Assembly: GCA_965212025.1 (NCBI GenBank)
Contig: OZ243039.1
Coordinates: 1,135,705-1,199,704, forward strand
Reading direction: 5' to 3'
DNA from: Candidatus Oxydemutatoraceae bacterium
Lineage (GTDB): Bacteria; Pseudomonadota; Gammaproteobacteria; Poriferisulfidales; Oxydemutatoraceae
Length of the DNA: 64,000 nucleotides
Shown: piece after piece, positions 1,701-39,758 of the stretch
How the letters are laid out: each line of letters opens with the position of its first letter
Position numbering within the stretch: position 1 is the stretch's first letter
The notes under the pieces: model-generated
Seen by the model: the letters and a program-made list of their open reading frames with translations, nothing else
Databases searched by the model: none
What the model was told of the DNA's origin: nothing
Program-made: the position numbers and the translations under genes

Positions 1701-3350
1701 TTAACCGGCTGTCTTAGACGCCTGCGTATCGTACTGCGCACCAAGGTCTTCCTCTTTCAAGGCCTTCACAAAACCCCACATCATCATCAGGATGATTATG
1801 GAGAAGGGAAGGGCGGTGGCAATGGCTGCGGTTTGCAGCGCTCCTAAACCACCAGCCAGAATCAACACGGCTGCAACCGCCGCCTCAGTCAAACCCCAGA
1901 ACACCCGGTGTTTGATGGGGGGCTGTTCGTCTCCGTCAGAAAGGATGGTGGTAATCACCAGCGTCCCAGAGTCGGATGATGTCACAAAGAAGGTGGCAAT
2001 CAACGCAGTCGCAACCACTGTGAAAATTGAGCCTACTATTCCGGCATCCATCAGATCGAATGTGGTGTACAACGCTTGTGTCACATCCGCTTTAACAGCA
2101 GCAACAATTCCTGCCTGACCGGCAGCAGAAACAATTTCACCTGCCTCATTCGTGACGGTATGGAACAACTCTATCCAGAGAGCGGTTCCACCAAAAGCAG
2201 TCAACCAAACCATTCCCAATAAAGTGGGCACCAGTAGCACACCAACGATGAACTCACGGATTGTCCGTCCTTTCGATATGCGGGCAATAAACATGCTGAC
2301 AAAAGGAGCCCATGAAATCCACCAAGCCCAGTAGAAAGCAGTCCATCCACCCTGCCAATCCCCATCTTCCGTTGAGTCGTTCCACAGGCTCAATGGAATG
2401 ACATTGGCCAAGTAGTCGCCAACGCTTTCCAGGAAAAACCCGAGTAGAAACAACGTGGGTCCAAAAATAATCATGAAGGCAATAACGGACAAAGCCATCC
2501 ACATGTTCAACTCACTGAGAATGCGAATTCCCTTGTCAACGCCGGAAACCACTGACCATATAGCGATCAGCGAAATGACCAATATGAGCACCATAATTGC
2601 CAGCGTGGCAGGCCCGGTAACCGCACCGTCCGCACCCCTTTCGACAAAGAACTCAATACCCGTTATTTCAAATATGCCTGTCGCTAACTGCTGAACCCCA
2701 AATCCCAAGGAAGTCGCAACCCCGAAAACTGTGGCAAACACTGCAAGTATGTTGACTGCATTTCCTATGGGACCTTTCACTCTGTCACCAATGATTGGGT
2801 ATAAGGCAGAGGAAATGGTAAGCGGGAGATTCTTGCGATACGCGAAATAGCAAAGACATAAAGCCACAATTACGTAAATTGCCCATGGGTGGAGACCCCA
2901 GTGGAAAAATGTAATTCGCATGGCAGTCGTAGCAGCCTCGCTAGTCAGACCTTCAGCAATGAAAGGATTACTGTCAAAGTGGTAGATGGGTTCGGCAATG
3001 CTCCAGAATACAAGCCCGATGCCCATGCCAGCACCGAAAAGCATTGACAGCCAGGAAAAATTGCTGAACGCCGGCCGGTCTGTGTCCGCCCCTAATCGGA
3101 TACTTCCGTAACGCCCCATAGCTAGCCACATCGTAAAGAAAAGGAAAAAGGCGACTACCGCGATGTAGTACCACTTCAAAGTAGCCTTGATCCAGTTTGA
3201 CAAGTCATTAAAGACCACGTTTGCCGTTTCGACATACAGAAAAGTCCAAGTCACGAAGACAACCACCAGCGCTGCCGCAATCATGGTGGTTGCCTTGTTC
3301 ATGTCCTTAAACAGTCCTGAAGTAGCCCTATTCGGTTCAATTATTGCCAT
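1701..3350 (-). CDS. BCCT-family (betaine/carnitine/choline) transporter
   Basis: 549-aa polytopic membrane protein carrying the BCCT signature region 'WGLHPWAIYVIVALCLCYFAYRKNLPLTISSALYPIIGD' and 'WTAFYWAWWISWAPFVSMF'. Confidence 0.85.
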   Translation of the reverse strand: MAIIEPNRATSGLFKDMNKATTMIAAALVVVFVTWTFLYVETANVVFNDLSNWIKATLKWYYIAVVAFFLFFTMWLAMGRYGSIRLGADTDRPAFSNFSWLSMLFGAGMGIGLVFWSIAEPIYHFDSNPFIAEGLTSEAATTAMRITFFHWGLHPWAIYVIVALCLCYFAYRKNLPLTISSALYPIIGDRVKGPIGNAVNILAVFATVFGVATSLGFGVQQLATGIFEITGIEFFVERGADGAVTGPATLAIMVLILVISLIAIWSVVSGVDKGIRILSELNMWMALSVIAFMIIFGPTLFLLGFFLESVGDYLANVIPLSLWNDSTEDGDWQGGWTAFYWAWWISWAPFVSMFIARISKGRTIREFIVGVLLVPTLLGMVWLTAFGGTALWIELFHTVTNEAGEIVSAAGQAGIVAAVKADVTQALYTTFDLMDAGIVGSIFTVVATALIATFFVTSSDSGTLVITTILSDGDEQPPIKHRVFWGLTEAAVAAVLILAGGLGALQTAAIATALPFSIIILMMMWGFVKALKEEDLGAQYDTQASKTAG

Positions 3351-3454
3351 AGCAAATTACCTCTTGTTGATGACTAAAGATCAGAATGATTGTTGTATCC
3401 AAAGATAAAATGAGTTGAAGTCCTTATCGAACTCCTTACCGCTACCGGGTCGAG

Positions 3455-13976: not shown

Positions 13977-15239
13977 TTGGTGTCCCAGTCCATAACAGAA
14001 AGCCGCACCAGCCTGGTGGAAATTTACCGTGCCGCGCTTGACCGCGTGCAGGGAACGCCGGTTGTTCGTGAATACCTGAGTCGATCTCCCTTGCCAAATC
14101 CTGTGCATCTGGTGGCGGTCGGGAAGGCAGCGTCGGCGATGGGCCTGGGCGCGTTCCAGGCTTTGGGAGACAAAATCAGCAGCGGTCTGGTGATTACCAA
14201 AAGCGGCCATCTAGACGAAGCACTCGTGCGGCTAAAAAATTTCCGGTGCCTGGAATCTGATCATCCGGTGCCCGGAGTTGCCAGCCTGCGCGCCGGGGCG
14301 GTATTGCTGGAATATGTGAAGGAGCGCGCAAAGCGCAACCAGGATCTGCTGTTTCTGCTTTCCGGTGGTGCCTCAAGTTTGGTGGAAGTCCTTCCCGACA
14401 CCATGCGTCTTGAAGATTTCAGAACACTGACCAGCCGCATGCTGGCGACCGATTTGGACATTCAGCGCATCAATACGGTACGCCGCGCCATTTCTAAAAT
14501 CAAAGGAGGTCGTCTGGCGACTCACCTGAAGGGATGTCGGGTGCTGAGCTTGTTAATTTCAGACGTGCCGGGAGATGATCCTGCGGTGATCGGTTCGGGA
14601 CTTTTGACTCCGGTCAGAGAAACGCTTGATCTGGATTCCTATCCCGGGAAAGTGCGTGAACTGCTAGGGGACTTAAAGGTTTGCGAGGTTCCCGGTGACG
14701 AGTGCTTTGCGGGCATGGAAACGCATATTGTTGCGTGCCTTGGTGATGCGAAGCAGGCGGCGGCAAAACATGCCCGTGCGCTTGGTTTTCAGGTTTCGGT
14801 CGCGCCGGAATTTATGGCAGGAGAGGTGGGAGCAACAGCCAGGGCAATGGTGCGCCAGCTTCAACAGCACAGCGGAGTGTTGTGGATCTGGGGTGGCGAA
14901 ACTTGGGTTGAATTGCCGGCGAATCCGGCGCGTGGTGGACGCAATCAGCACTTGGCTTTGGTGGCAGCCATGGAGCTACAGGGAAGGCAGCAGCAAGTGT
15001 TGCTTAGTGCCGGTACAGATGGCACAGATGGAGCAACAAACGATGCCGGTGCCATAGTGGACGGAGAAACAGTGCGCAGGGGTGCGGCTTTGGGCATGGA
15101 CGCCGGTGATTTTCTGAGACGCGCCGATGCCGGGAACTTTCTTGCCGCTACGGGCGATTTGATTACGACCGGACCGACCGGGACTAACGTCATGGACTTG
15201 ACCATCGGTGTAAACCTGGATGCCGTAGTTTCGGCCTGA
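13977..15239 (+). CDS. Glycerate 2-kinase (MOFRL/GckA-TtuD family)
   Basis: A 420-aa protein from the MOFRL family. Conserved blocks include 'LVAVGKAASAM', 'LLSGGASSLV', 'ISKIKGGRL' and 'SAGTDGTDGATNDAGA'. Confidence 0.8.
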   Translation: MVSQSITESRTSLVEIYRAALDRVQGTPVVREYLSRSPLPNPVHLVAVGKAASAMGLGAFQALGDKISSGLVITKSGHLDEALVRLKNFRCLESDHPVPGVASLRAGAVLLEYVKERAKRNQDLLFLLSGGASSLVEVLPDTMRLEDFRTLTSRMLATDLDIQRINTVRRAISKIKGGRLATHLKGCRVLSLLISDVPGDDPAVIGSGLLTPVRETLDLDSYPGKVRELLGDLKVCEVPGDECFAGMETHIVACLGDAKQAAAKHARALGFQVSVAPEFMAGEVGATARAMVRQLQQHSGVLWIWGGETWVELPANPARGGRNQHLALVAAMELQGRQQQVLLSAGTDGTDGATNDAGAIVDGETVRRGAALGMDAGDFLRRADAGNFLAATGDLITTGPTGTNVMDLTIGVNLDAVVSA

Positions 15240-23062: not shown

Positions 23063-23459
23063 GTGGGCTCAAAGCCATGCGGCAGGCGGTCACTTTTTGT
23101 GTACCCAAGCCCAATAATGATAAAAGGATGGTGGGAGAGCAAAGGTTGTTTTCGCAAGTCGTTTCCGTTCCGGTTGAGCCGGACTTTCCGGCACAAGACA
23201 TTTTTAGCGCTTCCTGCATGGTTGGCAGACCGATTGTAACGCAAGGAAACAGAGAGCAGCGTCGAAAAGATGATTGGTGACCGTTTTGATAAACATGAGG
23301 CTCGAGGGCTGGCGGATAAAAGTACAGGGGAGGTGTGGCACTTTTGCTTTTAGAAGGCACTGTACGTTCTGCCGGGAAACGATTGGTTCCTGTCATGCGT
23401 AAAGCGAAAGCCGTTTTGGTCTTGGGACGGACCGCGCCGAGATTAGTACAGTCCAGCTC

Positions 23460-26400
23460 ATGATGGTGCGTTTGAAATGCTTTGTCTGGGGGGCACAGAG
23501 ACTGATCAGAAACAGATATTGCTTATTGGCTCTGCTGCTGCTGTTGCTGGCGCCTGGCGTGTTTTCGCAAAGCATGCCTGGCAGGGAAGTTGAGTTGCCG
23601 CAGGTGCAATCGAGTCCTGAAATTCGCCATGCCTGGAAAGCAGCGGTTGAAAATTATCCCTTGCAGGCAACGCAGCTTGATCTTTCCGTGCTGAGTGACA
23701 AAGAACAGGAAGAAATCCAAAGTTTGCTCAGTGACCCGATAAAGACCTACGTGGGGATTGGCAGAAACGTACACCTGACTGAAGCAAATTGGGCAATGGT
23801 CAAGCGGCAAGACGGGTTTGCAATATGGCAGGCACAGATCCATTCTCCGGCGGCCTTGTCTTTGAAGGTGCGTTTCAGCGATTTTGATCTTGGGTTGGGG
23901 ATGTCCGTCAAAGTGTACGGTCTCAGTGGTGGCATCGGTGCCCCGGTTGAAGAATATGCGGGTCGTGGATTGGGAGACGATGGGGAGTTTTGGTCATTGG
24001 CGGTTCCTGGAGACTCGGTGGCCGTGGAGTACTGGCTTCCTGCCGAGCTTGAGATGCGCCCTGCTGATTTTCCCTTCAAGGTGGAAAGAATCAGCCATCG
24101 CTTCAGGGAAGAAGGCAAGCTGTCCGGAGTGAATGTGAGGCTCCTTGTCCCCCGACAATCCACTTGTGGATCTCCAGTGCCTGTCTGTTCCGCAAAGAAT
24201 GAAGTGGCGCGGGGTGTTGCTCGCTATTACGTCATTAGGGATGACGGGAAAGAAAGACAGTGTTCTGGCACCTTACTGAACAATGGAAGCGGGTCAGGGA
24301 ACCGTGCGCTTTATTTTCTCACAGCTTTTCATTGCATCGATGGGGTGGTGCGTTCTTCCGAAGTTCCCAAAGACACATTCATCAATACGGAGTTCCGGTT
24401 TCGTTACGATAATTGCACTGATAAATCTGAATACATTGAGGGTAGAGGCGCGACATTTGTTGCCGGAAGTGTGATCACGGTGGGGGATTGGGCGCTGTTG
24501 CGCATTGATGGGGAACTGACCGGTGGCAGCGGGGGTGGCTACACCCTTCTGGGTTGGGATTCTGCAAATCTTTCAAGATTTGCAGGCTACACGATTCATC
24601 ACGGAAGTGGCCTACCGCAAAGGCGCTCTTCATTTGACAGCATCGGTCTTGATTATGTGGCAAGAGTTGTGACGAATGGCAATGGCGGTCGTTCAACAGT
24701 TTTTTTGCCGTGCTCGGGTGCAGGCTGCTCGCATTTCGACTTGCGATTTAATCAAAGTATTTCTGGCGGTGCGTCAGGTGCTTCCATCTTGGTTGATGGT
24801 GACAAGCCGCAAGTGGTGGGCGTGCTTACGAATACTAATGAGACCTGCGGAGGGAATGCTTCCAGGTTCAGCAAGATGTACGAGGATGGGCGGGTTCAGG
24901 GAGCACTCACTTACGGTGACGATTATTTTCGGGACAGGGGAGAGGCGAGAAGCTTTGATGACTCGGCTCGGCCTGACTACAACCCCGTCCCGCCTGCGAT
25001 TGAAGGTGATGCCGAGATTGTGATCGGTGTGGTACATGGCAGTAATGGCTTGCCACTGACTTTGCGTGCCGAGGCGTTTGATGTCCGTTCCTTGCGCTGG
25101 GGTCTGCTGGAGGATTCAGGCCCGAGCGTGGCGGGAAGTGGGGTGCGTTTTCTGGAGGACAAAGGGGCGCGGGCACGTCTTGTCTACGAGGTTCCCGGGG
25201 GGATTAAAGAGCAAGATCAGTTTTCTGTGCAGGTGAGCAGTGCGGGGGGCAGCGATATGGTGACTGTACGCGTGCGACTTATTGGTGGGCCATTGCCGTT
25301 GCCGCCAGAGTGCGAGGGAAAGGGGTTGGCGACGGTTCCGGGGAATGGGACACTTGGCAATCCCTATCAACTGAGCACGCTTTGCCAACTGCAGGACATC
25401 AATTCGCAGCTCGACTCTCACTATCGCCTGACTGCCGATATTGATGCTTCTTCCAGCCGGGACTGGAATGGTGGAAGCGGGTTTCATCCTGTCGCCAAGG
25501 GTGTAGGAATCTTCCAGATTTTTGAACTGCTTGATGGTGAGTTGGCGTTAAGGAGTACTTACGAAAGGACTCTGTCGCAATATGTTTTTAGAGGTTCCTT
25601 CGATGGCGGCGGTTTTTCCATTGATGGACTGGTGGTGAACCGGGAAGAGGAAGAACTCGTGGGTCTGTTTTCCATCACGGATGGTGCCACCTTCAGGAAT
25701 GTGCGGCTTTTGAACTCGGAAATAAAAGGGCGCGACGGAGTTGGCACCTTGGCAGGACTCATGATTCGCAGCACGGTTTCTGGGTTCCATTTCAGGGGCG
25801 GTGTCGATGGGATCTCGGATGTAGGAAGCCTTTCGGGGATCAGTTTTTCCGGGAGCTTTGAAAACGGCTCGGTAACCGGTTCGGTACAGGGGGCTGAAGA
25901 TTTTGTCGGTGGTCTTGCAGGGGGGCATTTTGGGGGGACTGTGTCCGATGTTTCAGCGTACGGGTTGACCGTCTCGGGAAGAAACTATGTTGGCGGGCTC
26001 GTCGGCCATGATAGAAACAGCACCATCAGCGACAGCAATGCGCATACAGAGGTTTCCGGAGACGATTTTGTCGGGGGCTTGACTGGGTGGAGCCAAGGAG
26101 GAACGCTTGGTAAATGCTTCGTAACCGGCACGGCCAACGGCTTCAGCGTTGTTGGCGGACTCGCAGGATGGGTTCGTGGAAGTGACATCATCGACAGTTA
26201 CGCGACAGCTTCTGCCTCGGGAACTGACAACGTGGGCGGATTGGTAGGCTGGAGCAGCAATGGAGGGGCTATCAGCAACAGTTATGCGACCGGAGCTGCT
26301 ACCGGCACCACTTGGGTAGGCAGCCTGGTTGGTGATAATCAGGGCGAAGTCAGGAACAGCTATGCCTCGGGTGTGGTTACGCCGGTAGGGAATGGTCAAT

Positions 26401-28142
26401 ACGTGGGAGGTCTCCTGGGAGATAACAGCGGTGGGTCTTCGTCTGACAGCTTCATGCGTACGTTGGCGCAATTGCAGTGCCCGTTAAGGCCTGGTCAGTC
26501 TTGTCGGGGTGCTCGCTCGTATGTCGGTTGGAGTGAGCGGGAGTGGGACTTTGGTGATGCGAACAAGCTGCCAACCATCCGCTCGCAGCCGGCTCCGGTG
26601 ATTGCGGAGGGTGACGAGAAAGTGCTCGTAGCGGCTTATGGTAGTAGTAGCGTGACGCTGGCCTTGCATGCCGAGTCTGTCAACCCCGATTCTTTGAGAT
26701 GGCAGTTGTTGTCTGGTTCAGGTTCGGGTGTGCCGGGAAGCAGCGTGCGTTTCCTGAAAGACCAAGGAGCAGAGGCGCGTATTGTTTATGAGGTGCAGGG
26801 AGGGATTCGGAAGGAAGACCAATTTTCTGTACAGGTGAGAGGTACAGGTGGCACAGATGTGATTACTGTACTCGTAGGTGTTGCGCCTGCGATTGTAGGG
26901 GATGACGAAAAAGCGCTCAGCGTGGCTTATGGTAGTGGTGAAGGGGAACTGACCATGCGTGCCGGGGCGGTCAATCCTGATTCTCTGAGGTGGCGGTTGG
27001 TGTCCGGCTCAGGTTCGAGTGTGCCGGAAAGTCGTGTACGTTTTCTGAGAAATCAGGGAGTTGAGGCGCGTGTCGTTTATGAGGTTCCTGGCGGGATTCG
27101 GCAGGAAGACCAGTTTTCCATACAGGTGACGGGTACAGGTGGCACAGATGTAGTTGTTGTGCGCGTGGTCGTTGTGCCTACTATTGTGGAGGGTGACGAG
27201 GAAACGCTCGTGGTGGCTTATGGTAGTGGTGGTGGGGAGTTGGTCTTGCATGCCGAGGCGGTCAATCCCGACTCTCTGAGCTGGCAGTTGGTGTCCGGTT
27301 CAGGGCCTCAGGAAGGTAATGTACGCTTTACGGATCAAACGGGAGCTGAAGCACGTGTTGTTTATGAGGTGCGAGGTGGGATTCGTCAGAGAGATAAATT
27401 CTCTGTGCAGGTGCGTGATTCGGGTGGCAGCGATGAAATTACGATTTTTGTGATGCCGGACAGGCCGCCGGTGATCAACCGAGTTTTCGGTAGGGAGGTT
27501 GACGATGATGATGATGAGTTGATTGTCTACATCAGTCCCCAAACTCTAGAAGTGGTTCTGGATGTGATTGCTTCAGACGAGTCTCCTGAAAATCTGGAGT
27601 GGACAGTTACAGGTGATGCTGGAGCTTCGCTTGACATCTTTCCTCGTTCTCGGGTGGGAGGAGAAGTTGAGGTGTCATACCGACGAAGTTCTGCGGAAAT
27701 CAAAAGCGGTAGTTTTGTCACCACAGTGACAGACAGATTTGGACAATCAGACTCGTTTGTGGTGCGTATAGCCGAGAATGCGGATGCTCCGGAGGTCGTC
27801 AATGATGGTGTGACAATCACTAAGACGGGTAAAACGCTGGAAGTGAAAATACCTTACAGCAGCGAGCAACTAGTACTGGATTTGGTTACCCGTTTGGCAC
27901 GGGCGGGGCTTGTGGGGGAACAAGTCAGAAGTACCCCGACCGATGCGCAGGCGTCGTTCTCTTCGGCTGACGGTGAAGGGGCACTGAAGGTTCTGTTACC
28001 GGTTCCACTAGGTGTGGATGAAGCCTCGTTCTTGATACGGGTCAGAAACGGGGCTGCCAGCGAGAAAATTACGATACATGTCACGCGTGAGCAAGTTATC
28101 CGGCTGCGCCTGAAAGCGTACCTCGGTGGAGCGACTCGATAG
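23460..28142 (+). CDS. Secreted multidomain trypsin-like serine protease (lysyl-endopeptidase-like S1 domain + Ig-like repeats + GLUG repeats)
   Basis: Signal peptide 'LIRNRYCLLALLLLLLAPGVFSQ|S'. The S1 catalytic triad has His in 'LTAFHCIDG', Asp in 'GDWALLRIDG' and Ser in 'ISGGASGASI' (compare the lysyl endopeptidase GGSSGSP motif). An 'NGTLGNPYQLSTLCQLQDINSQLDSHYRLTADIDAS' segment precedes multiple 'VGGLVG...NSYATG' GLUG-type repeats. Four ~99-aa Ig-like repeats are present ('...VAYGSG..L.L.AEAVNPDSLRW.L.SGSG....VRF....GAEARVVYEV.GGIR.EDQFSVQV'). The C-terminus ends '...RLRLKAYLGGATR'. Confidence 0.8.
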   Translation: MMVRLKCFVWGAQRLIRNRYCLLALLLLLLAPGVFSQSMPGREVELPQVQSSPEIRHAWKAAVENYPLQATQLDLSVLSDKEQEEIQSLLSDPIKTYVGIGRNVHLTEANWAMVKRQDGFAIWQAQIHSPAALSLKVRFSDFDLGLGMSVKVYGLSGGIGAPVEEYAGRGLGDDGEFWSLAVPGDSVAVEYWLPAELEMRPADFPFKVERISHRFREEGKLSGVNVRLLVPRQSTCGSPVPVCSAKNEVARGVARYYVIRDDGKERQCSGTLLNNGSGSGNRALYFLTAFHCIDGVVRSSEVPKDTFINTEFRFRYDNCTDKSEYIEGRGATFVAGSVITVGDWALLRIDGELTGGSGGGYTLLGWDSANLSRFAGYTIHHGSGLPQRRSSFDSIGLDYVARVVTNGNGGRSTVFLPCSGAGCSHFDLRFNQSISGGASGASILVDGDKPQVVGVLTNTNETCGGNASRFSKMYEDGRVQGALTYGDDYFRDRGEARSFDDSARPDYNPVPPAIEGDAEIVIGVVHGSNGLPLTLRAEAFDVRSLRWGLLEDSGPSVAGSGVRFLEDKGARARLVYEVPGGIKEQDQFSVQVSSAGGSDMVTVRVRLIGGPLPLPPECEGKGLATVPGNGTLGNPYQLSTLCQLQDINSQLDSHYRLTADIDASSSRDWNGGSGFHPVAKGVGIFQIFELLDGELALRSTYERTLSQYVFRGSFDGGGFSIDGLVVNREEEELVGLFSITDGATFRNVRLLNSEIKGRDGVGTLAGLMIRSTVSGFHFRGGVDGISDVGSLSGISFSGSFENGSVTGSVQGAEDFVGGLAGGHFGGTVSDVSAYGLTVSGRNYVGGLVGHDRNSTISDSNAHTEVSGDDFVGGLTGWSQGGTLGKCFVTGTANGFSVVGGLAGWVRGSDIIDSYATASASGTDNVGGLVGWSSNGGAISNSYATGAATGTTWVGSLVGDNQGEVRNSYASGVVTPVGNGQYVGGLLGDNSGGSSSDSFMRTLAQLQCPLRPGQSCRGARSYVGWSEREWDFGDANKLPTIRSQPAPVIAEGDEKVLVAAYGSSSVTLALHAESVNPDSLRWQLLSGSGSGVPGSSVRFLKDQGAEARIVYEVQGGIRKEDQFSVQVRGTGGTDVITVLVGVAPAIVGDDEKALSVAYGSGEGELTMRAGAVNPDSLRWRLVSGSGSSVPESRVRFLRNQGVEARVVYEVPGGIRQEDQFSIQVTGTGGTDVVVVRVVVVPTIVEGDEETLVVAYGSGGGELVLHAEAVNPDSLSWQLVSGSGPQEGNVRFTDQTGAEARVVYEVRGGIRQRDKFSVQVRDSGGSDEITIFVMPDRPPVINRVFGREVDDDDDELIVYISPQTLEVVLDVIASDESPENLEWTVTGDAGASLDIFPRSRVGGEVEVSYRRSSAEIKSGSFVTTVTDRFGQSDSFVVRIAENADAPEVVNDGVTITKTGKTLEVKIPYSSEQLVLDLVTRLARAGLVGEQVRSTPTDAQASFSSADGEGALKVLLPVPLGVDEASFLIRVRNGAASEKITIHVTREQVIRLRLKAYLGGATR
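26590..27470 (+). repeat. Three consecutive ~297-bp intragenic tandem repeats encoding Ig-like modules (a fourth, more diverged copy at ~24990-25290)
   Basis: Protein-level repeats start 'PAPVIAEGDEKVLVAAYGSS', 'PAIVGDDEKALSVAYGSG' and 'PTIVEGDEETLVVAYGSG'. The underlying nucleotide units share long identical stretches, such as 'ggcttatggtagtggtg', 'gtcaatcccgactctctgag' and 'gtttatgaggt'. Confidence 0.8.
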
Positions 28143-28520
28143 GAGTGAACCACGTCTGTTTTGGCAAGCAGTTTCTTGGGTTCTGTTTTGAGTGAAGCTC
28201 CGTTTGTTCAGGATGAGGGTTAGCAACGGGTCTGCCAGCGAGAAAATTACGATACATGTCACGCGTGAGCAGGTTATCCGGCTGCGCCTGAAGGCGCACC
28301 TCGGTGGAGCGGCTCGATAGGAGTGAATCACGCCCGTTTCGGCAAGCTACTCCTTGGATTCTGTTTTGAGTGAAGCTCCGTTTGTTCAGGATGAGGGTTA
28401 GCAACGGGTCTGCCAGCGAGCAAATGACGACATTATGTGAGTGGGGTTATGCGCGAGCAGGTTATATCCGGTCGTGCCTGAAAGCACACCTCGGTGGTGC
28501 GATTCGATAGGAGTGAATCA
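28044..28520 (+). repeat. Three tandem ~180-bp copies of the protease 3'-tail cassette (copy 1 is the true gene end; copies 2 and 3 are degenerate)
   Basis: Copy 1 at 28044-28141 encodes '...NGAASEKITIHVTREQVIRLRLKAYLGGATR*'. Copy 2 at 28222-28319 encodes 'NGSASEKITIHVTREQVIRLRLKAHLGGAAR*'. Copy 3 at 28402-28508 carries indels and encodes '...CLKAHLGGAIR*'. The spacers between copies ('gagtgaa[ct]cacg...gttcaggatgagggttagc') are themselves homologous to upstream coding sequence. Confidence 0.85.
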
Positions 28521-28840
28521 CGCTCATCTCGGTAGCCGATTCCTTATTTTTTTGCTTCGCTACCCTTTGGCACCAATATGATCAGACCGTGTCTTTGGCA
28601 ATGTCGTAGCCAGGTCGCAACGCTGGGCAGATGCGAAATCGTGCGCAGCAGTTTCCGGCGGCTCTACTACTGCGTAGCTCGTGTGGTGCACCCGATTTTG
28701 GGTAGCGGTGACGGAAGTTACTCTGGCGTGTTGTACCACCTATCGGGAAACGGTAGTTTTCCGAACGTGCAAGGCGAAAGCCGTTTTGCGCCACGTGGCA
28801 TCAGAGTTGGCAAGTCTGGCTTCGTGAAGGTGCGTTTGAA

Positions 28841-30385
28841 GTGCTTTGCCTGAGGGTAGAGAAACTGATCAGAAACAGATATTGCTTATTGGCGCTGCTA
28901 CTGCTGGCACCTGGTGTGTTTTCGCAAAGTGTGCCGAGCATGGAAGTTGAACTGCGGCCTGCGCGAACGAGTTCTGAAATTCGCCATGCCCGGAAAGCAG
29001 CGGTTGAAAATTATCCCTTGCGGGCAACGCAGCTTGATCTTTCCGTGCTGAGCGACAAAGAACAGGAAGAAATCCAAAGTTTGCTCAGTGATCCGATAAA
29101 GACCTACGTGGGGATTGGCAGAGACGTCTACTTGACTGAAGCAAATTGGGCAATGGTCAAGCGGGAAGACGGGTTTTCAATATGGCAGGCACAGATCTAT
29201 TCTCCGGCGGCTTTGTCGTTGAATGTGCGTTTCAGCGATTTTGATCTTGGGTTGGGGATGTCCGTTAAAGTGTACGGTCTTGGCGGCGGCGTCGGTGCCC
29301 CGGTTGGGGAATATACGGATCGTGGATTGGGGGACGGTGGAAAGTTATGGTCGCTGTCAGTTCATGGAGACACGGTGGTTGTGGAATACTGGCTTCCTGC
29401 CGAGTTCGAAACGCGCCCCGCTGATTTTCCCTTCAGGGTAGAAAGACTCAGTCATGGCTTCAGGGACGAAGAAGGCAGGCTATCTGGAGTGAATGTAAGG
29501 AGCTTTGTCCCCCGTCAATCCACTTGCGGGTCACCACTTCCTGTCTGTGCTGCAGATGATGAAAATGCGCAGGGCGTCGCTCTCTATTTTGTTACTGACC
29601 ATGACGGGAGGCGAGGCCAGTGCTCTGGTGTCTTACTGAACAATGGAAACGAACCAAGGAACCGTACGCTTTATTTTCTCACCGCTTTTCATTGCATTGA
29701 TGGGGTGGTGAGGTCTTCCGAAGCTCCCAAAGGAACACGCATCAATACGGAGTTTCGGTTTCACTACGATACCGCATTATGCGGTTCTGATGGTTATATC
29801 AGTGGTGGAAACTCACGATTTATTGCTGGAAGCATTAGGGGAGATTGGGCACTGCTGCGTATTGACGGAGACCTGACCAATTTGAGTAGGAAGCAACTTT
29901 ATTACAGGCACCAAGGCTGGAGTGCCAGGCATCTTGGAGTTTTTTTTGGCTACATACTTCACCACCCAGTTCGTATGTCGCTAGGATTCTCCTCTTTTCT
30001 CAGCATTGGTCTTAGTCATGTGGTCGGAACCGGAACGAATAGCTACTTTGAGCCGTGTACGCATGCTGGCTGCTCGCATTTCAAATATTCTCTAGACCGA
30101 GCTACTTCAGGCGGCTCTTCAGGTGCTCCTATTTTTTATCCTGTTGGAGACTACGTTGTGGGGGTGCATACGCATGGTATTAGCAGCAGCTGCGTCGGGT
30201 GGGGAGCCCGATTCAGCAAGATGTACGAGGATGGAAGAGTTAAGGGAGCACTCACATACGGTGACGATTATTATTTTGACAGGGGAGCGGCGATGAATTT
30301 TGCTGACTCAGATCAACCTGGCTACAACCTCCGCGGGCAAGTTCCGGTGCGTTTGAAAGTGTACCTCGGTGGCGCGGTTCGATAG
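28841..30385 (+). CDS. Secreted trypsin-like serine protease, short paralog of 23460..28142
   Basis: The signal peptide and leader are nearly identical ('LIRNRYCLLALLLLAPGVFSQS'), as are the N-domain and S1 domain ('LTAFHCIDGVVRSSE', 'DWALLRIDGDL', 'TSGGSSGAPI'). The protein ends 'VPVRLKVYLGGAVR', homologous to the long paralog's tail. It starts at GTG 28841. The upstream 'VKVRLKCFA*' is the out-of-frame remnant of the paralog's ATG start. Confidence 0.75.
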   Translation: MLCLRVEKLIRNRYCLLALLLLAPGVFSQSVPSMEVELRPARTSSEIRHARKAAVENYPLRATQLDLSVLSDKEQEEIQSLLSDPIKTYVGIGRDVYLTEANWAMVKREDGFSIWQAQIYSPAALSLNVRFSDFDLGLGMSVKVYGLGGGVGAPVGEYTDRGLGDGGKLWSLSVHGDTVVVEYWLPAEFETRPADFPFRVERLSHGFRDEEGRLSGVNVRSFVPRQSTCGSPLPVCAADDENAQGVALYFVTDHDGRRGQCSGVLLNNGNEPRNRTLYFLTAFHCIDGVVRSSEAPKGTRINTEFRFHYDTALCGSDGYISGGNSRFIAGSIRGDWALLRIDGDLTNLSRKQLYYRHQGWSARHLGVFFGYILHHPVRMSLGFSSFLSIGLSHVVGTGTNSYFEPCTHAGCSHFKYSLDRATSGGSSGAPIFYPVGDYVVGVHTHGISSSCVGWGARFSKMYEDGRVKGALTYGDDYYFDRGAAMNFADSDQPGYNLRGQVPVRLKVYLGGAVR

Positions 30386-30619
30386 GAGCGCGCTGCGCCT
30401 TTTTCGGTAGACGATTCCTTGTTTTTCTGCTTCGGTGCCCTTGGCGCAGTACAATCAGACCGTGTCTTTGGCAATGTCGTAGCCAGGTCGCAATGCTCTC
30501 GGACAGGTGCCAGAAATCGCGTGCTGTGCGTTGCTTGCCAGAGAAAATGCGAACATAATCACTTTCCGCATAACGCTTTAGTCGTGTGTGGTTCATCATG
30601 TCAGAAGCGGGGGCTTGGG

Positions 30620-30979
30620 ATGACAAAAATGTTGCTGATACCGGGTCGTTCCCGAAACCAAGGTATCGCGCTCAACGCCGGAAAATTGGGGGAGAAATAT
30701 CTGGATGTAACGTCCACGCTGGAAATGAATGAATCTGATATGCAGAAACTTGGGATTGAGAAAGGTGGCAAAGTTCGGTTGTCTTCGGTTGTCGGCGAAG
30801 TGGTGGTGAGTTGCGTGCCCCGAAAGGATGCTGATTTGCCTTCCGGCCTGCTGTTTATTGCTTATGGTCCGACTTCGAGCCAGTTGATGCCGAGTGATAC
30901 TGCAGGCAGTGGTATGCCGTTGTCGAAGCAGCTGGAAGTCACAGTTGAAAGGTGCGATGGTGCAGACATCGGGGAGTAA
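30620..30979 (+). CDS. Formylmethanofuran dehydrogenase subunit D-like (molybdopterin-dinucleotide-binding domain) protein
   Basis: A ~120-aa small beta-barrel sequence 'MTKMLLIPGRSRNQGIALNAGKLGEKY...GEVVVSCVPRKDADLPSGLLFIAYGP' of FwdD/FmdD type, directly upstream of the fwdB/fhcB homolog. Confidence 0.65.
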   Translation: MTKMLLIPGRSRNQGIALNAGKLGEKYLDVTSTLEMNESDMQKLGIEKGGKVRLSSVVGEVVVSCVPRKDADLPSGLLFIAYGPTSSQLMPSDTAGSGMPLSKQLEVTVERCDGADIGE

Positions 30980-37649: not shown

Positions 37650-37826
37650 CCTTTCACGGTTGATTTGTCTGGCATGGTGGATATCTACAGTGGTACTTTT
37701 TGGTTCCTGTCACATACGCCTGAGCAGTGGCAATTGTCTGTTATGCGTCTTTTTATCCGTTCCAGGATGGTGTCTGTGATAGAATGATTGGAAAGTGGCA
37801 AGGTACTTAAATTTCAGAGGTACGGA

Positions 37827-39758
37827 ATGAATATTTACTCGGTGGAAGAAATACAAAACGTGAAGGACAGGTTTGACGTTTGTGCAGAAGTAGCCCGGAA
37901 GCTGAACAGAGATAGTGTTAGTGGCGAAAAGAAGTGGGGACGTATTGTTTTAGGGGCTGATGGATATCCAGAGGTTCACGTAGCCAAGAGTGCCAAGGGC
38001 AAGGTTTGGCACTTCTTGAAGGTGACAGTGCTCAGGCCTTATATGTATTACCAGAATTACAAGTTGCTGAAGAATCTTGAGTCTTCAGTCCGCGAGTGCT
38101 TTGGAGAAGACCATAGGGAGAATGCCGCCAAGGAGATCCGTGAAATTGCAGCAATGGCATCAGTCGCTTCAAAGAGCAGGAAGCCTTATATGGGTTCTTA
38201 CCAGAATTTCGCAGACTATGTTGCCGAATTTGCAGCCGCAGGAGGTCGTAAATTTCAAGCGATGGAGACAGAGGGTTCCTCTCCGATGGAAGTGAATGAT
38301 TTCACCGATAGGCGAGACCATGCTCCCCCGACGGAAGTGAATGACTCCACCGAGAGGAGAGCCCCTGCTCCCCCGACGGAAGTGAATGATTCCTCCATGA
38401 GTGGAGATAATAAACTCCGTGTTCCGTTAGAACTGGAACGGGCTGATGGTGAGGGAAATTTTGGTTCCAAGGAACAAGGCTTGATGGCTGGCTTGTCCAT
38501 GTTTGGTCAGAATCGGAACGACCAAAAGTCTAGGGAAGACATGCTGTCAGAGAGGAACGCGTTTTTACCGGGTGAGTCGTCTGAATTGTCAGAAGCGAAA
38601 CCGTTAATGAGAAGTAAAGGCAATCTGGGTAGGAGAAAATCTTTCTCAGGGTGGGGGTATCCGAAACAAGATGGCCAATCCAAGAATAGGCCTACTTCAA
38701 GAGTAGAAATAAAGTCGTTTTCGGAACGTCCTGGTTTGGTTGGGTTTGGTGCCAGCCCGATGAAGCGACGTTTAACGCGCACACCTGACGGAGGGGATTC
38801 TGTGTTTTCTGTTGATCTTGAACTGTCTGTAGATGAGCCGGAAAGACAGGGTACAGGCCACAAACCCTTCAACCCAGCATTGAAGAGACCCGGCAGCGCT
38901 GGCTATTTAAGAAGCAAATCCACATTTACGCCCACACTGCCCCGTCGGAGTGTACCACCCAGCCCGTCATTGAAGAGAGCCAGCAGCACTGGCCATTTAA
39001 GAGGCAGATCCACACTTATGTCCACACCCACACCGAGCCGACGAGCCGGGGCGGGTAGTACCGGTGATCTTTCCCGGACACTTAGGGTTGACGGTGGAAC
39101 AGTGTTTTTGCACGTTGGTAATCAACCAGCTGATAGCTTGTTAGGAGATGAAGATTTCGAAGGTAGAGCAAAAGGGTACCACACCGAGCGTGAAGGAAGG
39201 ATACGTACCAAAATACACAAATTTTCGCATTCATCAGTGTTTAGTGGAAAGTTGCATGGGAAAACGCTTGGCGCACTTTCCAAACGGCTCAATTTAGGAG
39301 TGAAAGCCGTGGTATTAAGATCTGTCAGTTTGTTAGATGATGGGAGGTTGGGATATGCCAATTATTGGGGTTTTATCAATTTTTTACAGCCTGGATACGG
39401 TCAAGGAGGGAAATCTGAACATGCCAAAGGTTCACGACTTGTCGGTATAAGGGTCAATTCGAGCGAGCTTCAATGCGAAGAGAGTGCGTTTTTCCCAGCA
39501 GCCTGGGAGGCCATGCTGGAATATGAAATTCTCCATAATCCAGTTGAGGGAGAAGCAACCAAACCAACATCAGATGTCAATACTGTGGTTACCCTTGCTT
39601 CAAAACTTTCGACCGGAAAGAGTAGTGGAAAAAAAATTATAACAAAAGGAGAAGATCTGGTAGATCCTCTTAAAATCATTTATGAAAAATATGTAACAGA
39701 TAATGAGGAAATCTTTGTTGAACAAGATGATAGGGAAGAAACTTTGACCCATCTATAA
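37827..39758 (+). CDS. Hypothetical protein (charged, no signal peptide/TM; S/P/R-rich low-complexity centre; possible secreted effector)
   Basis: Open frame from 37788 (TTG). The ATG at 37827 has a good SD (gaggtacgga ATG). Short imperfect repeats 'PMEVNDFTDRRD / APPTEVNDSTERRA / PAPPTEVNDSSMSG'. A central 'KRPGSAGYLRSKSTFTPTLPRRSVPPSPSLKRASSTGHLRGRSTLMSTPTPSRRAGAGSTG' segment looks like eukaryotic RxxS/T-P motifs. GC is markedly lower than the flanks. No recognisable domain. Confidence 0.6.
   Translation: MNIYSVEEIQNVKDRFDVCAEVARKLNRDSVSGEKKWGRIVLGADGYPEVHVAKSAKGKVWHFLKVTVLRPYMYYQNYKLLKNLESSVRECFGEDHRENAAKEIREIAAMASVASKSRKPYMGSYQNFADYVAEFAAAGGRKFQAMETEGSSPMEVNDFTDRRDHAPPTEVNDSTERRAPAPPTEVNDSSMSGDNKLRVPLELERADGEGNFGSKEQGLMAGLSMFGQNRNDQKSREDMLSERNAFLPGESSELSEAKPLMRSKGNLGRRKSFSGWGYPKQDGQSKNRPTSRVEIKSFSERPGLVGFGASPMKRRLTRTPDGGDSVFSVDLELSVDEPERQGTGHKPFNPALKRPGSAGYLRSKSTFTPTLPRRSVPPSPSLKRASSTGHLRGRSTLMSTPTPSRRAGAGSTGDLSRTLRVDGGTVFLHVGNQPADSLLGDEDFEGRAKGYHTEREGRIRTKIHKFSHSSVFSGKLHGKTLGALSKRLNLGVKAVVLRSVSLLDDGRLGYANYWGFINFLQPGYGQGGKSEHAKGSRLVGIRVNSSELQCEESAFFPAAWEAMLEYEILHNPVEGEATKPTSDVNTVVTLASKLSTGKSSGKKIITKGEDLVDPLKIIYEKYVTDNEEIFVEQDDREETLTHL
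38283..38400 (+). repeat. ~2.5 copies of a 42-bp imperfect tandem repeat inside the hypothetical gene
   Basis: '(gct)cccccgacggaagtgaatga[ct]tcc[at]ccgagaggaga' is seen twice fully and once partially, encoding the 'APPTEVNDST' peptide repeats. Confidence 0.7.

Follow-up and report, generated by a model that had tools for sequence, protein, structure and literature searches.

Short C-terminal tags that recur on many proteins of one genome have led to sortase, exosortase, archaeosortase, rhombosortase, and myxosortase. Signals of the PEP-CTERM, LPXTG, PGF-CTERM, MYXO-CTERM, and JDVT-CTERM class consist of a signature motif, a helix that spans the membrane, and basic residues, and the C-terminal domain (CTD) of the type IX secretion system (T9SS) of Bacteroidota is a folded β-sandwich of ~70 to 100 aa. 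The GlyGly-CTERM signal is tripartite, being composed of a Gly/Ser-rich motif, a hydrophobic helix, and a basic cluster (PMC6219818). It occurs in VesB of Vibrio cholerae, an S1 protease with an Ig-fold that is processed by rhombosortase, secreted via the type II secretion system, and retained at the surface (PMC6219818, PMC12369372, PMC3237569). Here we describe a locus in a 64,000-nt stretch of contig OZ243039.1 from a Candidatus Oxydemutatoraceae bacterium (hereafter the window, to whose positions all coordinates refer), where an array of two adjacent genes, with all of its parts on the + strand, encodes S1 proteases that end in a common 12-residue tail.

This tail is shared by many proteins irrespective of their domains, is selected at the protein level, is flexible, and occupies the slot of a sorting signal, which is the pattern of C-terminal sorting signals. 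The balance of the evidence tips, if only slightly, toward the view that the locus is a birth-and-death array of genes and that the tail serves as a C-terminal signal for sorting, retention, or recognition, independent of the domain ahead of it and with no membrane-spanning segment.

Distribution and conservation of the C-terminal tail

Gene 1 (23460–28142), an ORF of 1560 aa, ends in LRLKAYLGGATR and a TAG stop codon (28104–28142), and gene 2 (28841–30385; 514 aa) ends in VRLKVYLGGAVR and the same stop codon (30347–30385). A preliminary description of this DNA had proposed the shared ending as a sorting or processing signal, an idea that would fall if the tail were a duplication artifact restricted to this lineage. 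A DNA scan for the pattern R-x-K-[AV]-[YLH]-L-G-G-A-x-R-TAG in 185,579 genomes, one per species, returned 18 loci, of which 13 (15 matches) are dispersed in one ~3-Mb Porisulfidus chromosome. Each of these 15 matches closes an open frame of 249 to >2495 codons with the ending ...LR[VA]KVYLGGAVR, and the other five loci are chance matches in frames of 11 to 69 codons. Among seven of the Porisulfidus frames that were scanned with Pfam, each has 0 to 9 GLUG stretches, six match Glug, and none has a protease domain.

The tail also stands at the end of all close family members from other contigs. Three proteases at one such locus (L001) end in ...VR[LS]KVLLGGATR with a TAA stop codon, and at another (L026) both a protease and its convergent GLUG neighbor carry the tail. 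Distant homologs (32–39% identity) close in variants that resemble ...LR[VL][KR]xFLEG[AP]L[QR], specifically LRLRVFLEGAELSR, VRVKTFLEGALR, LRVRVLLEGPLQ, VRLK[VL]FLEGALQ, and RLRLKVFLGGMVR. Thus, the tail exists in homologs from other assemblies and in GLUG proteins that have no protease, and a duplication artifact can be set aside. Homologs outside the clade have, at the same position, tails with Gly-rich, hydrophobic, and basic parts, endings read as T9SS-type, or PGF-CTERM. The Gly-rich tails had no NCBIfam GlyGly-CTERM match at E ≤ 1, and we term them just "tripartite, GlyGly-CTERM-like."

A set of 41 unique C-termini yields the 12-residue consensus [LV]-R-x-[KR]-[VA]-[YLF]-L-[GE]-G-[AP]-x-[RQ]-COOH. 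With the central leucine numbered 0, the Arg residue at −5, which was not a position used in choosing sequences, is invariant (41/41), the residue at −3 is Lys or Arg throughout, and the last residue is Arg or Gln in 39 of the 41 (33 Arg, 6 Gln). Column entropy drops from ~3 bits in the linker to 0 to 1 bit in the tail. The codons for these residues are by comparison free to change, with two to four synonymous codons per residue, including TTG, TTA, CTC, and CTA for Leu, GGA, GGC, and GGT for Gly, GCG and GCA for Ala, CGG, CGA, and CGC for Arg, and TAT and TAC for Tyr; those for Val vary as well. The fact that codons vary while the amino acids stay constant indicates that the constraint acts on the protein.

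In AlphaFold2 (AF2) models, the tail is unstructured and of low confidence both after the protease of gene 2 (predicted local distance difference test score, or pLDDT, <50) and after the last Ig-like domain of gene 1 (pLDDT ~32, without secondary structure), and the linkers ahead of it are unrelated. This predicted disorder suggests that the tail is an appendage and not a strand of the preceding domain. Neither whole proteins nor isolated tails gave a Pfam or NCBIfam match for the tail (NCBIfam at E ≤ 10), a scan of JGI metagenomes for it gave four loci that are all short-frame chance matches, and a literature search with tail strings found no paper. A profile search with the 42-aa protein ends recovered solely small ORFs called on degenerate copies of the gene end.

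The 12-mer GGTGCGTTTGAA occurs three times in the array, at 23465–23476 (start of gene 1), 28829–28840 (just upstream of gene 2), and 30346–30357 (gene 2 tail), such that VRLK belongs to the n-region of the signal peptide as well as to the tail. It is not conserved in L001, and the triple occurrence may be due to chance or microhomology.

Comparison of the tail with known sorting signals

VesB, with its GlyGly-CTERM, rhombosortase, and type II secretion, offers the closest worked example. Both cases involve trypsin-fold proteases that are, or in the window would be, exported by Sec, that have Ig-like C-terminal parts, and that end in a short C-terminal signal with Gly-Gly, and in both many proteins per genome have the same tail. 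Distant homologs of the window proteins even share with VesB a tail of Gly-rich, hydrophobic, and basic parts. However, the window tail stops three residues past Gly-Gly and has neither the hydrophobic helix nor the basic cluster. Because it has no membrane-spanning helix, it cannot be a substrate of rhombosortase or of an intramembrane sortase-type enzyme.

Indeed, the preliminary description had held that the tail belongs to none of four known types, and each of these exclusions is upheld. Against GlyGly-CTERM stand the missing hydrophobic helix, the missing read-through frame, and the lack of an NCBIfam match. PEP-CTERM and LPXTG are excluded because there is no NCBIfam or Pfam match and no hydrophobic stretch, and the same two observations were made for PGF-CTERM, MYXO-CTERM, JDVT-CTERM, and similar models. 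A T9SS CTD is incompatible with a length of 12 aa, disorder in AF2 models, the absence of a Pfam or NCBIfam T9SS match, and a gammaproteobacterial host.

Two other candidates were rejected. The outer-membrane β-signal is the last strand of a barrel and ends in an aromatic residue, usually Phe, whereas 39 of the 41 tails end in Arg or Gln and the domains ahead of them are Ig, GLUG, or protease domains and not β-barrels. Read-through of the stop codon into a hidden membrane helix is likewise untenable, as the window sequence continues TAG GAG TGA, L001 has TAA, and only short frames that lack hydrophobic character follow downstream.

Genes 1 and 2 encode paralogous S1 proteases

The positions and lengths of the two adjacent ORFs and their relationship as tandem paralogs, all put forward in the preliminary description, are borne out. 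By BLASTP, residues 13 to 508 of gene 1 and 7 to 496 of gene 2 are 67% identical, and a separate match (IRLRLKAYLGGATR and VPVRLKVYLGGAVR, respectively) covers the tail, where the last 14 residues are common to both. At the DNA level, blocks of 80 to 91% identity recur at an offset of ~5.35 kb. BLASTP and DNA alignment agree that gene 2 lacks the middle of gene 1 yet keeps its end: gene 2 equals gene 1 minus approximately nucleotides 24985 to 28088 (~3.1 kb), with homology resuming at ...GCAAGTT..., five codons ahead of the tail. A 1-nt frameshift in the first codons distinguishes gene 2 from gene 1, and its frame restarts at the GTG at 28841. Because a short-form protein of another assembly (P0004) has the identical junction, TRGQDIRLRLKALLGGAIR, the short form must be old. 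The two genes also share a 5′ leader, as had been noticed earlier; the homologous segments 23404–23459 and 28774–28840 both carry GCGAAAGCCGTTTTG, with the motif found at 23404 and 28774.

Gene 1 encodes, in order, a Sec-type signal peptide (aa 1–36), a putative LysC-type pro-domain, an S1 protease domain, an Ig-like module, a GLUG module, three Ig-like modules, two β-sandwich domains, and the 12-aa tail. In gene 2, the signal peptide, pro-domain, and protease are followed by a short linker and the tail. The catalytic domain of gene 1 (24135–24959) contains His291 (24330–24332), Asp343 (24486–24488), and Ser439 (24774–24776), which correspond to His284, Asp335, and Ser427 of gene 2. These residues lie within the motifs TAFHC, GDWALL, and GGASGAS (gene 1) or GGSSGAP (gene 2), and in both genes the motifs align to H57, D113, and S194 of Protein Data Bank (PDB) entry 1arb. 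The triad therefore survives proper alignment, a point on which the protease assignment could have failed, and the His block that had been described as identical, FLTAFHCIDGVVRSSE, indeed occurs in each gene.

The lysyl-endopeptidase-like character attributed to the catalytic domains holds as well. In the PDB, the gene 2 sequence matches 9omd_A, a lysyl endopeptidase (E 5.7e-7), and 1arb, which is Achromobacter protease I (E 2e-4). Its AF2 model has a mean pLDDT of 75, with values of 83 to 94 in most 10-residue blocks of the catalytic domain, and a Foldseek search with this model returned Lysobacter LysC as the best match (4nsy/4nsv, E 3.9e-10), with V8, DegP, and chymase next in rank. Together with the intact motifs, the predicted structure confirms both proteins as S1 proteases with a chymotrypsin/trypsin double β-barrel of the lysyl-endopeptidase-like fold. 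Judged by its sequence, the N-terminal domain of ~190 aa may correspond to the LysC pro-domain: PF27052 (Lysyl_endopep_N) is on record for homologs P0007/8, P0057, P0064, and P0071, the window proteins had no PF27052 match in the Pfam scan, and the match to the propeptide 9omd_I is weak (E 0.49).

Protease I owes its Lys specificity to Asp225 at the base of the S1 pocket. HMMER aligns this residue (NRSDQYGR) to a Lys in ARFSKMYEDGRV (FSKMYEDGRV), in an alignment of low identity and uncertain register, and the Lys is kept across the subfamily. We therefore term the enzymes LysC-like in fold but not in specificity, and their substrate preference probably differs from that of LysC.

In sum, the window proteins share with LysC and protease I the chymotrypsin fold and the order and motifs of the His-Asp-Ser triad, and they would also have in common a long N-terminal pro-domain and Sec export as pre-pro-enzymes. 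They differ in that structural alignment reveals just 18 to 20% identity and Lys replaces Asp225; in addition, they have Ig and GLUG modules (gene 1) and the 12-aa tail, and reside in fast-evolving tandem arrays that include apparent pseudoprotease paralogs. An exhaustive HMMER search gave 2939 protease relatives at E ≤ 1e-3, of which just 28 fall below 1e-30. In two members of related arrays (P0002 at L001 9845–12472 and P0015 at L024 10001–14740), the catalytic His is gone (LTSFYC, LITSRYC), as is the serine of GxSG, but the signal peptide and tail remain; from their sequences, these two look like pseudoproteases. A match to the Rfam Na+ riboswitch inside the gene 1 coding sequence (24552–24587, + strand; 23 bits relative to a gathering score of 40.5, E 0.2) is taken as chance.

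Accessory modules of gene 1

GLUG-motif proteins (PF07581) include M26 metalloproteases of the IgA1/Zmp type and haemagglutinins of the TpsA type. The GLUG block reported for gene 1 is bona fide, with a Pfam Glug score of 42.2 bits relative to a cut-off of 20.5 (E 7.1e-11) and six GGLxG motifs at aa 817 to 983; gene 2 has no Pfam Glug match. This module (25323–26588; GNGTLGNPYQLSTLCQLQDI ... WDFGDANKLPTIRSQ) is preceded by an Ig-like module (24990–25280) and followed by three more in tandem (26592–27464; Pfam Big_9). There are hence four Ig-like modules as first described, although each is 97 aa (291 nt) long and not ~99, and the first has 62 to 70% nucleotide identity to the later three. The NPYQLSTLCQLQDI segment that had been picked out in gene 1 was located at aa 634. 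Two β-sandwich domains in the AF2 model (27465–28097) complete the protein ahead of the tail, the final strand closing at ...ITIHVTREQ.

Gene 1 differs from known GLUG proteins in that its GLUG block is joined to an S1 protease and not to an M26 or two-partner-secretion domain, its signal peptide is of the Sec type, and it ends in the new tail instead of LPXTG or PGF-CTERM. The architecture is as unusual as had been supposed, since GLUG and protease domains are fused in only 7 of 164 proteins screened (P0011–14, P0061, P0063, and P0065). The GLUG module of gene 1 is 35 to 37% identical to modules of the protease-less GLUG giants in the Porisulfidus genome, which points to domain shuffling with a resident GLUG family. 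Gene 1 would then be a chimera of a protease, Ig-like modules, and a GLUG module drawn from these giants. Beyond the clade, its GLUG block is closest to haemagglutinin-like proteins of two-partner secretion and to one PGF-CTERM protein.

The protease array in related genomes

The closest relatives, found by a degenerate DNA scan and exact-protein look-ups, reside in OZ244118.1, a 2,997,607-bp metagenome-assembled genome (MAG) designated "uncultured candidatus Porisulfidus sp." Porisulfidus MAGs are among the symbionts of the carnivorous sponge Lycopodina hypogea (PMC12988363), and Porisulfidus has been used as an outgroup to SUP05 (PMC9123188); we infer that OZ244118.1 belongs to the Lycopodina hypogea study. 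The window derives from a close relative of this MAG, because the neighboring fwdB-like protein is 95% identical between the two.

The same genomic slot, bamC-dapA-bcp-perM/array/fwdD..., contains three paralogs in L001 and two in L025, and a further array of four to five lies on contig L024. On the right, the array is bordered in the window, L001, and L025 by a gene for a fwdD-like molybdopterin-binding subunit (30617–30979, + strand), the first gene past the array. The occurrence of arrays with two to three paralogs between perM and fwdD in two other Porisulfidus-type assemblies rules out the concern that the two copies are an assembly artifact. Between genomes, the proteases are 57 to 69% identical, compared with 95% for the fwdB-like neighbor, and their ratios of nonsynonymous to synonymous substitution rates (dN/dS) are 0.3 to 0.5, compared with 0.10 for fwdB. 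The protease/GLUG set appears to evolve 6 to 10 times faster at nonsynonymous sites than neighboring housekeeping genes. Distant family members are likewise in tandem, with two to three per array (L027, L028, L029, and L030). In L029 (7412–21128), three tandem tail-bearing proteases are separated by duplicated 57-aa ACT-domain pieces of the upstream aspartokinase gene, which is a clean case of segmental tandem duplication dragging along pieces of the flank.

These features recall variable surface multigene families and other birth-and-death arrays, with which the locus shares a conserved 5′ leader, signal peptide, and 3′ end around a shuffled middle, a copy number that varies among close genomes (2, 3, 2, and 4–5), dN/dS values above those of neighbors, and truncated 5′ and 3′ remnants. 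It differs from variable surface families in showing no sign of programmed switching, and its silent 178-bp cassettes, described below, are near-identical to the expressed end and hold little variation. We picture the locus, in a Candidatus Porisulfidus-type sponge symbiont, as what would be a tandem array shaped by birth and death, made up of pro-LysC-like S1 proteases that leave the cytoplasm through Sec and placed between perM and the fwd/fhc operon, in which gene 2 would be an old internal-deletion derivative of gene 1 that kept the protease and the last 12 to 17 codons. Should a sorting role for the tail not hold, the locus would still illustrate clearly how birth-and-death evolution and domain shuffling act on an array of symbiont surface proteins.

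Terminal cassettes and trailer DNA

A 178-bp segment at the end of gene 1 is present three times in tandem, and each copy retains ...LKA[YH]LGGAxR and TAG. The first copy (28028–28205) is the real end of gene 1. The second copy (28206–28383) is 89% identical to it and encodes ...RVSNGSASEKITIHVTREQVIRLRLKAHLGGAAR followed by the stop; the third (28384–28510, with a repeat match to ~28567) is frame-broken and keeps ...CLKAHLGGAIR and the stop. The earlier remark that degenerate downstream cassettes preserve the tail is thus accurate, and the tail-end pattern has four matches compared with 0.28 expected by chance. Similar silent end-cassettes follow long genes in L001 and lie beside distant family members. 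We read the cassettes as footprints of unequal recombination, which explains their recurrence only in part; they would be by-products of the same process that generated the array duplications. A template/variable repeat system like that of diversity-generating retroelements was considered and rejected, as the differences are ordinary transitions and not adenine-specific, and inspection by eye revealed no reverse transcriptase nearby.

In the distant branch of the family, ORFs of 49 to 55 aa (P0207–P0210, P0212, and L030 20304–21077) consist of the last residues plus the tail ...RLRLKVFLGGMVR, which is the ending of the 3341-aa protein P0061. P0207–P0210 and P0212 are on contigs of 17,336, 335,521, and 9,373 bp, and P0208 shares the 335,521-bp contig with P0061. 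Silent terminal cassettes therefore recur in this branch.

The conserved ~120-bp 3′ trailer of the preliminary description exists in both units, but the gene 1 copy does not directly follow the stop codon and lies instead past the two degenerate cassettes. Copy a (28511–28660) is upstream of gene 2, and copy b (30386–30535) is upstream of fwdD and orthologous to L001 12473–12757 and L025 ~14334–14514. The two are 81.5% identical over ~150 nt, which is on par with paralogous coding DNA (80%), and just a 38-nt core (28583–28620 and 30456–30493) stands out by being identical. This core, GTGTNTTTGRCAATGTC, is found only in the protease arrays (twice in the window, three times in L001, four times in L024, and once in L025), whereas the remaining tail loci lack it. 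The core of copy a contains TTGGCA where relatives have TTGACA, and in these relatives it reads TTGACA-N17-[CT]A..., which is promoter-like; a strict promoter scan gave no call. Its confinement to protease arrays and its position directly upstream of fwdD in three genomes are most simply explained if the trailer belongs to the gene that follows, as its upstream or promoter region copied by duplication, and not to a tail signal. It would have been carried along in each duplication, for which the aspartokinase fragments of L029 offer a parallel.

That the trailer instead gives rise to a regulatory RNA with a defined structure, or acts as a terminator of the protease genes, as an earlier proposal of a conserved regulatory element might imply, we consider very improbable, and the least probable of the alternatives in this study. 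Such a role could account for a core that is identical in both window copies above a background of ~80% and that retains 17 invariant nucleotides in 10 copies from four assemblies. However, folding z-scores are near zero (0.04 to 0.71), Rfam gave nothing at threshold, the alifold consensus (−8.3 kcal/mol) is weak and shows little covariation, no terminator-like site lies at the trailer, and the placement of the element before fwdD and away from other tail loci speaks for the next gene's upstream region.

Strict σ70 and terminator scans of the intergenic regions returned nothing. A σ54 promoter in the core was rejected since relatives, which have TTGACA, do not retain the GG of TGGCA, as was a small trailer ORF (28578–28853; 91 aa) whose start the second copy does not preserve. 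In L024, the core is repeated three times in tandem with a ~190-nt period (2858–3422) inside a 1.65-kb intergenic gap. Within 60 nt past the stop codon, GLUG loci L002 to L017 share TAGGGAGTACGCCCG-N4-6-CGGGATAGCAAAAGAGGCAGGACAG with a hairpin-like CCCG/CGGG pair, which is unlike the window trailer. Tandem repeats with AMAKGAW...-type frames in the intergenic DNA near Porisulfidus GLUG genes (L005 1029–2153 and L012 2677–5825) are probably non-coding repeat elements.

Possible functions of the tail

If the tail acts as a signal for sorting, retention, or recognition, it would have the shape of a short strand in which basic and hydrophobic residues alternate, then a Gly turn, and finally an end that is basic or an amide, and it would mark a lineage-specific extracytoplasmic set of proteases and GLUG/Ig giants. 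Once the protein had been exported by Sec, a factor in the periplasm or outer membrane would read the free tail, most plausibly via β-strand augmentation, and this reading would route the protein across the cell surface or hold it there. The job would then be the one performed by the tripartite GlyGly-CTERM-like tails or T9SS CTDs that homologs have in other taxa. A broader proposal is that the tail represents a new 12-residue class of sorting or anchoring signal, read by periplasmic or outer-membrane machinery of sponge-symbiont Gammaproteobacteria, that defines a dedicated host-interface surface proteome; this we put forward only tentatively, since we think it is rather more apt to be wrong than right. 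If true, a tail free of a membrane helix on Sec-exported proteases and adhesin-like giants would constitute a different route to, or hold on, the Gram-negative surface, and would delimit the proteins with which an uncultured sponge-symbiont lineage probably contacts its host.

Several observations weigh against a sorting role. The part of the original suggestion that has held is the wide distribution, the selection, and the lack of a match to known models; for the sorting function itself, neither a cognate sorting enzyme nor a receptor came to light. No common partner gene stands beside tail genes in eight loci, nor was a conserved partner seen at L002 to L019 and L026 to L030. The tail is confined to a narrow set of assemblies, mostly from sponge metagenomes. 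The sequences behind the consensus were partly chosen on L, G, and [APM] at positions 0, +2, and +3, and signal peptides were assigned by eye and not with a predictor. Uniformity of the tail inside one genome could partly reflect gene conversion among paralogs. Moreover, to our knowledge, the experimentally characterized small C-terminal sorting signals of this class all have a membrane-spanning helix, which this tail does not.

Might the tail be cut instead of read? Achromobacter protease I has a C-terminal extension that is removed, and by analogy the tail could be a processing site or removable pro-peptide at which a co-encoded or periplasmic protease cuts R-x-[KR] to activate, release, or shed the protein. 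The invariant Arg at −5 and the always basic residue at −3 would suit such a site, as would the lysyl-endopeptidase lineage of the proteases, their presence in the same genomes as tail-bearing GLUG proteins (adjacent in L026), and the modeled flexibility and accessibility of the tail. This explanation is nevertheless unlikely: the Lys at the Asp225 position (FSKMYEDGRV) makes Lys/Arg specificity doubtful, paralogs without the catalytic His and Ser keep the tail, and a bare cleavage site would have no need of an L-[GE]-G-[AP]-x-[RQ] end whose distance from the C terminus is conserved along with it. A somewhat smaller likelihood attaches to the notion that the tail has no protein function and that its codons and the 3′ flank form a DNA block for recombination or gene conversion, which homogenizes and shuffles 3′ ends and leaves the 178-bp cassettes as footprints. 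Post-stop DNA is also conserved among GLUG loci (TAGGGAGTACGCCCG...GGGATAGCAAAAGAGGCAGGACAG), tandem terminal cassettes occur in the window, in L001, and beside distant family members, and segmental duplication is seen across all arrays. A block of DNA, however, would not be expected to change synonymously at most tail positions with the amino acids fixed, to persist between families that are 30 to 40% identical with unrelated flanking DNA, or to vary by lineage in its stop codon and 3′ flank (TAG or TAA, with different trailers).

Less probable again, by a shade, is a C-terminal degron or quality-control tag for a PDZ-bearing periplasmic protease of the Ctp/Prc or HtrA type, governing the turnover of large exported proteins. 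A free, flexible tail at a fixed distance from the carboxylate would fit, and the window does encode an S41 Ctp-type PDZ protease (51872–53074, − strand), 21 kb from the array, which reads protein C-termini even though it is probably a housekeeping enzyme. Ctp is a common housekeeping gene, though, and is unlinked to the array; canonical PDZ ligands end in hydrophobic residues whereas the tail ends in Arg or Gln, and a destabilizing tag on at least 20 giant proteins is hard to explain.

Other features of the window

The window also contains, at 48054–51494 (− strand), a 1146-aa ORF rich in basic residues that has no Pfam match at E ≤ 1e-5. Downstream of fwd/fhc are two ORFs without a Pfam match on the + strand (37788–39758, 656 aa; 39830–40942, 370 aa), and ORFs of 685 and 363 aa in L001 and of 675 and 361 aa in L025 occupy the same positions.

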